Origin: a virus
Taxonomy: Duplodnaviria; Heunggongvirae; Uroviricota; Caudoviricetes
Virus record (IMG/VR): IMGVR_UViG_2609460344_000022
Strand: one strand, 5' to 3'
DNA length: 40,873 nt
This document shows positions 15,846 to 16,706 of the stretch, piece after piece. The notes under the pieces were generated by a model that saw only the letters and a program-made list of their open reading frames with translations, ran no database searches and was not told the origin of the DNA. Made by a program: the position numbers and the translations under genes. Within the stretch, counting starts at the first letter, position 1, and the number at the start of each line of letters is the position of its first letter.

Positions 15846-16486
15846 GTAAATTAGCTATCAGGCTTCAATTGTCGCTGGCATTCGCATCAAAGGAGAATGA
15901 GATGACCACTTTTACAAAAGAGCAGTTAATCAGTCATGTTAGTGAAAATGTAAAGGCGATGAAATTTGCAGTAAAACAGACAGCATTCAAAAATTCTCTC
16001 GAGGCAATTGAGTTGGATTTAGCACTGGCCCTTGTTGCTCAGGCTTCGCTGGAAGCAGAGCCCGTGCTTTATATGAATCGATTTACCGGAAAGACATTCT
16101 CACTGGAAGAGCAACCCGGTGCTGATAAGGAACCGGAAATATACGTGCCGCTATATGCTGCCCCGCCAGACAGCGCCGCCATGCTTCAGGCTGGAAACTT
16201 TCGGGAAAAGAAGGGTTCGTCAACCAATAATTTTCGGGAAATCTCGGAAACGTCAACCAACCATCCGGTAACTCTGGATGGTTGGATAAGCTGTAGTGAG
16301 CGAATGCCGGATGACGGTCAGCACGTAATTATTTTATGTGATGGCGCATTCGTTCTTTATGCGCAATATCGAGACGGTGAGTTTTTTGATGTAGTCCGTG
16401 ATGGTGATGAATTTTTCGAAACACAGAGCCGCAATGTAACCGACTGGATGCCGCTACCAGAACCGCCGCAGGAGGTGCGCCAATGA
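15842..16486 (+). CDS. DUF551-like phage protein
   Basis: 214 aa; C-terminal 'DGWISCSERMPDDGQ...WMPLPEPP' resembles DUF551 domain common in nin regions. Confidence 0.55.
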   Translation: MSKLAIRLQLSLAFASKENEMTTFTKEQLISHVSENVKAMKFAVKQTAFKNSLEAIELDLALALVAQASLEAEPVLYMNRFTGKTFSLEEQPGADKEPEIYVPLYAAPPDSAAMLQAGNFREKKGSSTNNFREISETSTNHPVTLDGWISCSERMPDDGQHVIILCDGAFVLYAQYRDGEFFDVVRDGDEFFETQSRNVTDWMPLPEPPQEVRQ

Positions 16487-16566
16487 ACTGGCCTGAAGCA
16501 TTTGCAATTACAGGCGTTGCTATGGCTATCACTTTTTTAGTATATGTTATTTGTCGGTGGGGGTAA
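16483..16566 (+). CDS. Small hydrophobic peptide (27 aa)
   Basis: ATGA overlap with upstream stop, GGAGG SD 7 nt upstream; MNWPEAFAITGVAMAITFLVYVICRWG; below ORF-track cutoff. Confidence 0.4.
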   Translation: MNWPEAFAITGVAMAITFLVYVICRWG

Positions 16567-16601
16567 AAACGTTCGCCGGGATTAACACCAAAGGAGGGAA
16601 T

Positions 16602-16706
16602 ATGTCGGATGATATATCACTGGCAATGGAAGGTGCGCTGGCTGTTATTGCTGTTGTGGGCGTTTACTGCCTGGTTGTGTTTTTGATGGATCGACTAGGG
16701 AACTGA
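16602..16706 (+). CDS. Small hydrophobic peptide (34 aa)
   Basis: AAGGAGGG SD 5 nt upstream of ATG; MSDDISLAMEGALAVIAVVGVYCLVVFLMDRLGN; single predicted TM helix. Confidence 0.45.
   Translation: MSDDISLAMEGALAVIAVVGVYCLVVFLMDRLGN

Follow-up and report, generated by a model that had tools for sequence, protein, structure and literature searches.

Two probable genes for tiny single-pass membrane proteins upstream of hok in lambda-like Escherichia coli prophages

A number of small single-pass proteins encoded by the Escherichia coli chromosome, among them AcrZ, MgtS, CydX, KdpF and YohP (27 amino acids, aa), are about 25-50 aa long and modulate larger membrane proteins. They consist of little beyond one helix, display small-residue packing faces and make use of ordinary ribosome-binding sites. 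The same features are shared by the products of two neighbouring mini-genes, called here ORF1 and ORF2 (for open reading frame; 27 and 34 codons, respectively), which are carried by the plus strand of a 40,873-nucleotide (nt) stretch of viral DNA, IMG/VR record IMGVR_UViG_2609460344_000022 (Caudoviricetes). This whole stretch is referred to below as the window. The two mini-genes differ from the chromosomal group by the absence of homology and by being phage-borne: both families appear restricted to temperate phages of Escherichia and Salmonella.

The Hok/Gef family (PF01848) provides a second point of comparison, since it consists of small hydrophobic membrane peptides of prophages and since a hok gene adjoins ORF2. 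The differences are nevertheless substantial: ORF1 and ORF2 share no sequence similarity with Hok/Gef and possess neither a periplasmic Cys-containing tail, nor a mok-type overlapping frame, nor a structured leader. No antisense RNA was detected for either of them with Rfam or with a promoter and terminator scan, and ORF2 is freely translated.

ORF2 itself has a published counterpart. The gene XECs145 (ECs_5710) of prophage Sp6 in E. coli O157:H7 Sakai is the same gene, and the order DUF551 gene, (ORF1), ORF2 and mok/hok is alike in both. A product ending in the full 34-aa ORF2 was reported as translated, and PredictProtein assigned to it one helix and an inner-membrane location (Hücker et al. 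2017; PMC5597208). Unlike the present analysis, that study described for XECs145 no function, no linkage to hok and no second subfamily.

In the present work, we argue that both ORFs are likely to be genuine genes of tiny single-pass inner-membrane proteins, carried as accessory cargo by lambda-like E. coli prophages, and that they are unlikely to be toxins. ORF2 is an already known, annotated and Ribo-seq-supported hypothetical protein (Ribo-seq, ribosome profiling), for which the correct start, a second subfamily and the exclusive linkage to hok are new. ORF1 is a new, overlooked family of phage small membrane proteins and an ordinary kind of gene.

Two small reading frames: structure, conservation and translation

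ORF1 (16483..16566, plus strand) extends from the ATG at 16483 to the TAA at 16564-16566 and encodes the 27-aa peptide MNWPEAFAITGVAMAITFLVYVICRWG. Its Shine-Dalgarno site AGGAGG (16470..16475, plus strand) is separated from the ATG by a 7-nt spacer. The gene located upstream (15902..16486, plus strand) encodes a DUF551-domain protein according to Pfam (PF04448, E = 1.1e-20) and to the RefSeq annotation of E. coli FORC_069. The end of this gene, ..CAG GAG GTG CGC CAA TGA, holds the Shine-Dalgarno site of ORF1 and overlaps its start, the TGA (16484-16486) and the ORF1 ATG together forming ATGA. ORF2 (16602..16706, plus strand) extends from the ATG at 16602 to the TGA at 16704-16706 and encodes the 34-aa peptide MSDDISLAMEGALAVIAVVGVYCLVVFLMDRLGN, identical to WP_001278450.1. 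It is unrelated to ORF1 and has its own strong and exposed-looking ribosome-binding site, AAGGAGG (16591..16597, plus strand), 4 nt from the ATG.

Each peptide contains a single hydrophobic segment of 17 residues, with a best Kyte-Doolittle mean of 2.34 for ORF1 and 2.95 for ORF2, compared with 3.22 for Hok. An earlier reading of the window, made from the sequence alone, had described two small peptides with one transmembrane segment each, strong Shine-Dalgarno sites and an ATGA coupling of the first to a DUF551 gene; this description holds. The ORF1 helix, whose family follows the pattern M[NTS]WP[ED]AF..G.A.A....Y..CRWG, presents Trp and Phe at one interface and Tyr and Trp at the other. A single Arg on its C-terminal side suggests an N-out/C-in orientation. 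The helix also displays a conserved face of small residues (G11xxxA15 and A13xxxA17), and ORF2 ends in the conserved motif YCL..V.LMDRL. Reading frames of at least 25 aa starting with ATG and preceded by a strong Shine-Dalgarno site number 18 in the window, as against 5.3 +/- 2.6 in shuffled sequences; five only of these 18 are 25-60 aa in size, including ORF1, ORF2 and hok. The same count includes two other short frames of this kind, both on the plus strand, at 3-104 (33 aa) and 20200-20382 (60 aa).

The conservation of ORF1 was analyzed in IMG/VR using solely its first 20 nt as an anchor; here and below, the counts and sequence sets drawn from IMG/VR are those among the matches listed. Exactly 27 codons are kept in 110 of 120 copies, and the remaining lengths of 23, 24, 25 and 29 aa result from in-frame changes. 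Among 57 unique sequences, the first, second and third codon positions show an entropy of 0.45, 0.24 and 0.76, respectively, and the ratio of nonsynonymous to synonymous polymorphism (pN/pS) is 0.43 in frame, compared with 0.86 and 2.0 when the sense frame is shifted. Across 74 unique loci, the Shine-Dalgarno site (-12..-7) and the ORF carry an information content of 1.2-2.0 bits per column, which drops to 0.2-0.4 bits right after the ORF1 stop and upstream of the Shine-Dalgarno site. The -12..-7 segment is the sole conserved block 5' of ORF1, with 1.55 bits per column versus 0.2-0.9 nearby. The unit conserved across mosaic contexts is therefore exactly the Shine-Dalgarno site plus ORF1. Beyond IMG/VR, tblastn uncovered full-length copies, 59-67% identical, in 92 phage records, where each ORF1 follows a DUF551/Ea22/EaA-type gene with a stop/start overlap of 4 nt or 1 nt, often near xis/int.

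ORF2 comprises two subfamilies. The second one, uncovered by tblastn against phages, is 29-30 aa long, begins with AGGAGG and a GTG start, and reads (V)LVLKCALAIAAVMAIYCLAVVLMDRLSD; it is encountered in phages Tritos, Evi, mEp460_ev081 and HannyBb, likewise just 5' of hok. A gap-free alignment of the two subfamilies over 25 codons and the stop shows 69% nucleotide identity, and they have frame, stop position and Shine-Dalgarno site in common. Identity is 45% over the 100 nt upstream, which are unrelated, and 92% in the hok locus. Within the two subfamilies, pN/pS is 0.24 and 0.33, and intact frames account for 11/12 and 9/9 of the unique sequences. Variable columns show a third-position bias, with 6, 2 and 11 at codon positions 1, 2 and 3. 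Conservation in related phages, which the sequence-only reading had put forward as a check, is found for ORF1 as well as ORF2, and the frames are retained. A phmmer search against 1.84 billion representative sequences returned only the close ORF2 family and no distant relatives.

Direct evidence of translation comes from strand-specific Ribo-seq of Sakai, as listed for XECs145 in S2 Table of PMC5597208. In lysogeny broth (LB), the transcriptome and translatome values were 79 and 346 reads per kilobase per million (RPKM), giving a ribosome coverage value (RCV) of 4.35 with a coverage of 0.99. In brain heart infusion (BHI), the corresponding figures were 121 and 150 RPKM, an RCV of 1.14 and a coverage of 0.84; under BHI stress, they fell to 73.3 and 1.1 RPKM, 0.01 and 0.37. 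Short annotated genes averaged an RCV of 1.55 in LB (Hücker et al. 2017); compared with them, ORF2 is translated with high efficiency by growing, uninduced Sakai lysogens. The published start of XECs145 was called 20 codons upstream of the ORF2 ATG and lacks a Shine-Dalgarno site; the 34-aa form is favoured by the strong Shine-Dalgarno site and ATG, by the annotation of the Prokaryotic Genome Annotation Pipeline (PGAP) and by the subfamily with a GTG start. ORFs shorter than 30 aa were left out of that study, so that ORF1 could not have been found. The 0.99 footprint coverage of XECs145 takes in the last 25 nt of ORF1, a hint at most.

The annotation status of the two genes differs. Positions 16400-16760 of the window are 100% identical to E. 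coli FORC_069, whose PGAP annotation lists ORF2 as the hypothetical protein WP_001278450.1, flanked by the DUF551 gene and hokD. A near-identical ORF2 is ECs_5710 of the Sakai prophage, and the exact 34-aa protein occurs on about 1000 contigs. ORF1 is without annotation in all RefSeq and phage records inspected; a protein-database search recovered it from GenBank sporadically, mostly as forms of 43-57 aa whose starts had been wrongly extended, and in one case as 27 aa. Both peptides had been described as unannotated, which stands for ORF1 in these records and fails for ORF2.

None of the homologues recovered by protein searches carries a gene name. When a named homologue was sought in K-12, prophage CPS-53 was found to carry yfdS (DUF551) followed by yfdT, which is not ORF1, and a motif scan there was negative; a scan of part of the Qin prophage for the ORF motifs yielded nothing. 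PHROGs gave marginal matches only (phrog_38566, E = 0.0065) and PADLOC nothing meaningful. Neither peptide is present in the EDL933 supplements of Neuhaus 2016, a literature search on accessions and peptide strings found nothing relevant, and upstream small ORFs are not mentioned in the passages searched of a 2026 preprint surveying Hok.

Genomic contexts and linkage to hok/sok

The upstream C-termini to which the ORF1 cassette is coupled are of at least four kinds without detectable mutual similarity, and only one of them is DUF551. These include the DUF551 ending ..PEPPQEV[RN]Q, ..RNGLISVEDILR, ..NDLKNIEQEVNR, ..EATQGENQ and others, and Pfam returned no match for the upstream partners other than DUF551. 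Downstream of ORF1, three arrangements are encountered: 56 copies are without hok, 42 abut the hok promoter, and 11 are followed by ORF2 and then hok. In E. coli UTAK-12 (locus L003, 1487-1564), a 25-aa in-frame variant, MSRPDAFAGVAIAIAFLVYVICRWG, with W3R and a two-codon deletion, is coupled through ATGA to a further upstream gene, again unrelated.

Members of the ORF1 family were further found in 196 plasmid records, for the most part non-mobilizable plasmids of about 90-115 kb from Escherichia and Salmonella. Two of these plasmids, upon inspection, look like P1-like phage-plasmids (one was typed IncY) and keep the 27 codons and the Shine-Dalgarno site. When the ORF2 C-terminal pattern was searched in one genome per species, two contigs matched, one of them labelled Segatella copri; the other, which was inspected, is a 3.3-kb scaffold of a Collinsella metagenome-assembled genome (MAG) carrying an E. 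coli-phage ORF2-hok arrangement. ORF1-hok or ORF2-hok of the E. coli lambdoid type is found in PP818812.1, 'Actinobacillus phage vB_Apl-pPE4' (locus L010, 1201-1651), and in the 'Collinsella sp.' MAG scaffold (locus L309); both sequences are nearly identical to Escherichia prophages, and their host or bin labels look doubtful.

As the sequence-only reading had noticed, the two mini-genes lie right next to hok. The hok/sok module (16783..17107, plus strand) comprises the hok mRNA leader with the sok target (16783-16957), matched by the Rfam sok/hok-leader model RF01794 with 110 bits and E = 6e-26, and the hok coding sequence (16952-17107). The encoded protein matches the NCBIfam Hok family with E = 7e-13 and 48.3 bits, below the curated cut-off of 73, and is labelled hokD by PGAP. 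A putative hok promoter is formed by a -35 element TTGCGG (16749..16754, plus strand) located 16 nt from a -10 element TAGAAT (16771..16776, plus strand), the latter 7 nt 5' of the RF01794 match and invariant in all three aligned loci. This promoter (16749-16776) is kept in related loci, and the 5' end of the hok mRNA is predicted at about 16783, with 77 nt between the ORF2 stop and the start of the leader match. Since promoter and leader start 3' of both ORFs, ORF1 and ORF2 lie outside the hok transcript; they are neither mok-like nor elements of the hok leader, and are separate from the hok/sok module. A role of ORF2 as a hok leader peptide or upstream ORF was considered and is unlikely, because the promoter follows its stop and because the peptide is constrained (pN/pS 0.24-0.33).

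ORF2 and a palindrome are flanked by imperfect 19-nt direct repeats of the pattern GGGTAAAAACG..TT.GC.GG. The left copy, GGGTAAAAACGTTCGCCGG (16561..16579, plus strand), spans the ORF1 stop, and the right copy, GGGTAAAAACGGTTTGCGG (16736..16754, plus strand), contains the putative -35 element. The alignment of loci reveals a single repeat copy in those where ORF1 abuts the hok promoter. For these reasons ORF2 and the palindrome appear to be a segment of about 175 bp that entered an older junction between ORF1 and the hok promoter. The palindrome itself, a perfect 22-nt sequence (CGATATGGGAATTCCCATATCG, 16715..16736) located after the ORF2 stop and before the hok promoter, is kept in the loci of the 34-aa type and travels with that type. 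It folds as a hairpin with no T-run, which led us to reject it as a terminator of the classic type; it might act as an RNA hairpin or bind a protein.

The linkage between ORF2 and hok is asymmetric. Among the listed ORF2 copies with enough downstream DNA, 115 of 116 lie directly 5' of the hok mRNA start, and the lone exception has a degraded promoter region without hok. When the hok promoter served as the anchor, ORF2 was present in 44/124 listed loci and absent from 80/124. The presence of ORF2 therefore predicts that of hok, and not vice versa. Every ORF2 copy of the 34-aa type is preceded by ORF1 or by its 25-aa variant. The adjacency may be functional, or it may reflect co-inheritance over about 70 nt.

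This asymmetry bears on the alternative that best survives, in which ORF2 would be an accessory of hok/sok, either as a membrane partner or modulator of Hok or, by being transcribed and translated and together with the palindrome, as an insulator of the hok promoter against read-through. In its favour are the near-invariable position before the hok mRNA, the attachment to hok of both subfamilies in spite of their divergence and their two different junctions, and the fact that the left neighbour of ORF2 varies and the right one never does. Yet hok loci with the same promoter mostly do without ORF2, and plain co-inheritance over so short a distance also predicts tight linkage; selection at the amino-acid level speaks against a purely RNA or leader role. 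We regard this alternative as unlikely. A more specific proposal, that ORF2 is a third partner of hok/sok that tunes or counteracts Hok and, separately, that ORF1 is a membrane partner of the Ea22/DUF551-type early proteins to which it is coupled, is held to be equally doubtful.

Downstream of hok, a sub-threshold Rfam match to isrK (17116-17197; 31 bits, gathering score 50) covers the hok 3' region and terminator and probably reflects the terminator hairpin (17176-17193 plus T-run). Further along, a 59-aa unnamed ORF (17317-17496) is followed by a death-on-curing (doc)-family toxin gene at about 17515-18000, and the minus strand carries a helix-turn-helix gene (18051-18368) and a RelE/ParE-family toxin gene (about 18361-18699). 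Positions 17317-18699 thus form a stacked accessory island of toxin-antitoxin type that separates the replication genes from the late region.

Toxins, noise or accessory membrane proteins

The sequence-only reading had offered two identities for the mini-genes, additional type I toxin-like peptides or phage membrane-targeting peptides. The first would make one or both of them membrane toxins controlled by an RNA antitoxin that escaped detection, and small hydrophobic single-helix peptides encoded beside hok/sok, just 5' of doc-type and RelE/ParE-type toxin-antitoxin genes, would suit it. However, neither peptide matches a toxin family in Pfam or NCBIfam at E <= 1, be it Hok, Ldr, TisB, Ibs, ShoB, Fst or other described families, and Rfam reports the hok leader only, with no known RNA family overlapping the ORFs. 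Promoter-like sites on the minus strand occur at chance level (3 versus 2.3 expected) and no minus-strand terminator was found. In healthy LB cultures, the translation of ORF2 clearly exceeds the mean for short annotated genes, contrary to what a repressed toxin would show, and ORF1 is simply coupled to an ordinary early gene. A type I toxin function consequently lacks support and is quite improbable. The second identity, phage membrane-targeting peptides, provides the best generic description so far.

Less credible still is the notion that the ORFs are non-functional, whether as a mosaic 'boundary sequence' that serves recombination between phage modules or as chance frames with Ribo-seq noise: the position of ORF1 exactly at module junctions, the narrow distribution of both families and an open antisense frame are compatible with it, but third-position-biased variation, indels that are in-frame only, the retention of Shine-Dalgarno site, start and stop, conservative hydrophobic substitutions and an RCV of 4.35 at a coverage of 0.99, which is unlike noise, all argue against it.

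Several points weigh against our interpretation of the two ORFs as accessory membrane protein genes. The IMG/VR samples consist of redundant E. coli prophages, and their copy counts do not represent independent events. The antisense frame sharing the wobble positions of ORF1 is open in 97% of the copies, and pN/pS is alike in the sense frame (0.56) and in this antisense frame (0.51). The translation of ORF1 is predicted from sequence features, since the Sakai study excluded frames of its size. The strict adjacency of ORF2 and hok hints at a functional tie, and the step that makes the peptides modulators of a membrane partner is proposed by analogy.

With respect to the antisense frame, pN/pS was dropped as a means of assigning the ORF1 strand, as the sense frame and one antisense frame are inseparable by this measure. 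The strand call rests instead on the conserved Shine-Dalgarno site, ATG and stop, on the stop/start coupling and on the hydrophobic product. The open antisense frame with equal pN/pS is a shadow-ORF effect and calls for caution in tests of nonsynonymous to synonymous substitution rates (dN/dS) on short ORFs. In the window, a 67-aa antisense ORF on the minus strand (16329-16532) overlaps the 3' end of the DUF551 gene and the first 50 nt of ORF1.

Under the accessory-cargo interpretation that we favour, ORF1 would be a self-contained cassette, made of a Shine-Dalgarno site and 27 codons encoding mainly a membrane-spanning helix, and would in all cases owe its translation to stop/start coupling (ATGA, TGATG or TAATG) with the mosaic early gene before it, which is of the Ea22/DUF551 type. 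The ORF2 cassette, ORF2 plus the 22-nt palindrome, would have been inserted in the older junction of ORF1 with the hok promoter. Each peptide would pack within the membrane against a host or phage membrane protein and act like a modulator without killing the cell. By analogy with the chromosomal small proteins, the conserved helix face of small residues in ORF1 and the conserved motif YCL..LMDRL in ORF2 suggest that each peptide binds another membrane protein. The accessory stretch in which the two genes reside is rich in toxin genes (hok/sok, doc family and RelE/ParE family), which fits lysogen-expressed accessory cargo.

Unless a function emerges, neither gene alters current concepts. Lysogens of Shiga-toxin-producing E. 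coli lineages express ORF2, and its exclusive placement before hok raises the testable question of whether it is a protein accessory of prophage hok/sok loci. Were the partnership of ORF2 with Hok, or of ORF1 with Ea22/DUF551-type proteins, to prove true, it would constitute a protein-level layer on systems that were thought to be understood. ORF1, carried by hundreds of E. coli prophages and by P1-like plasmids, is a clear case of a widespread phage gene overlooked by annotation pipelines, and it belongs in phage and PGAP models.

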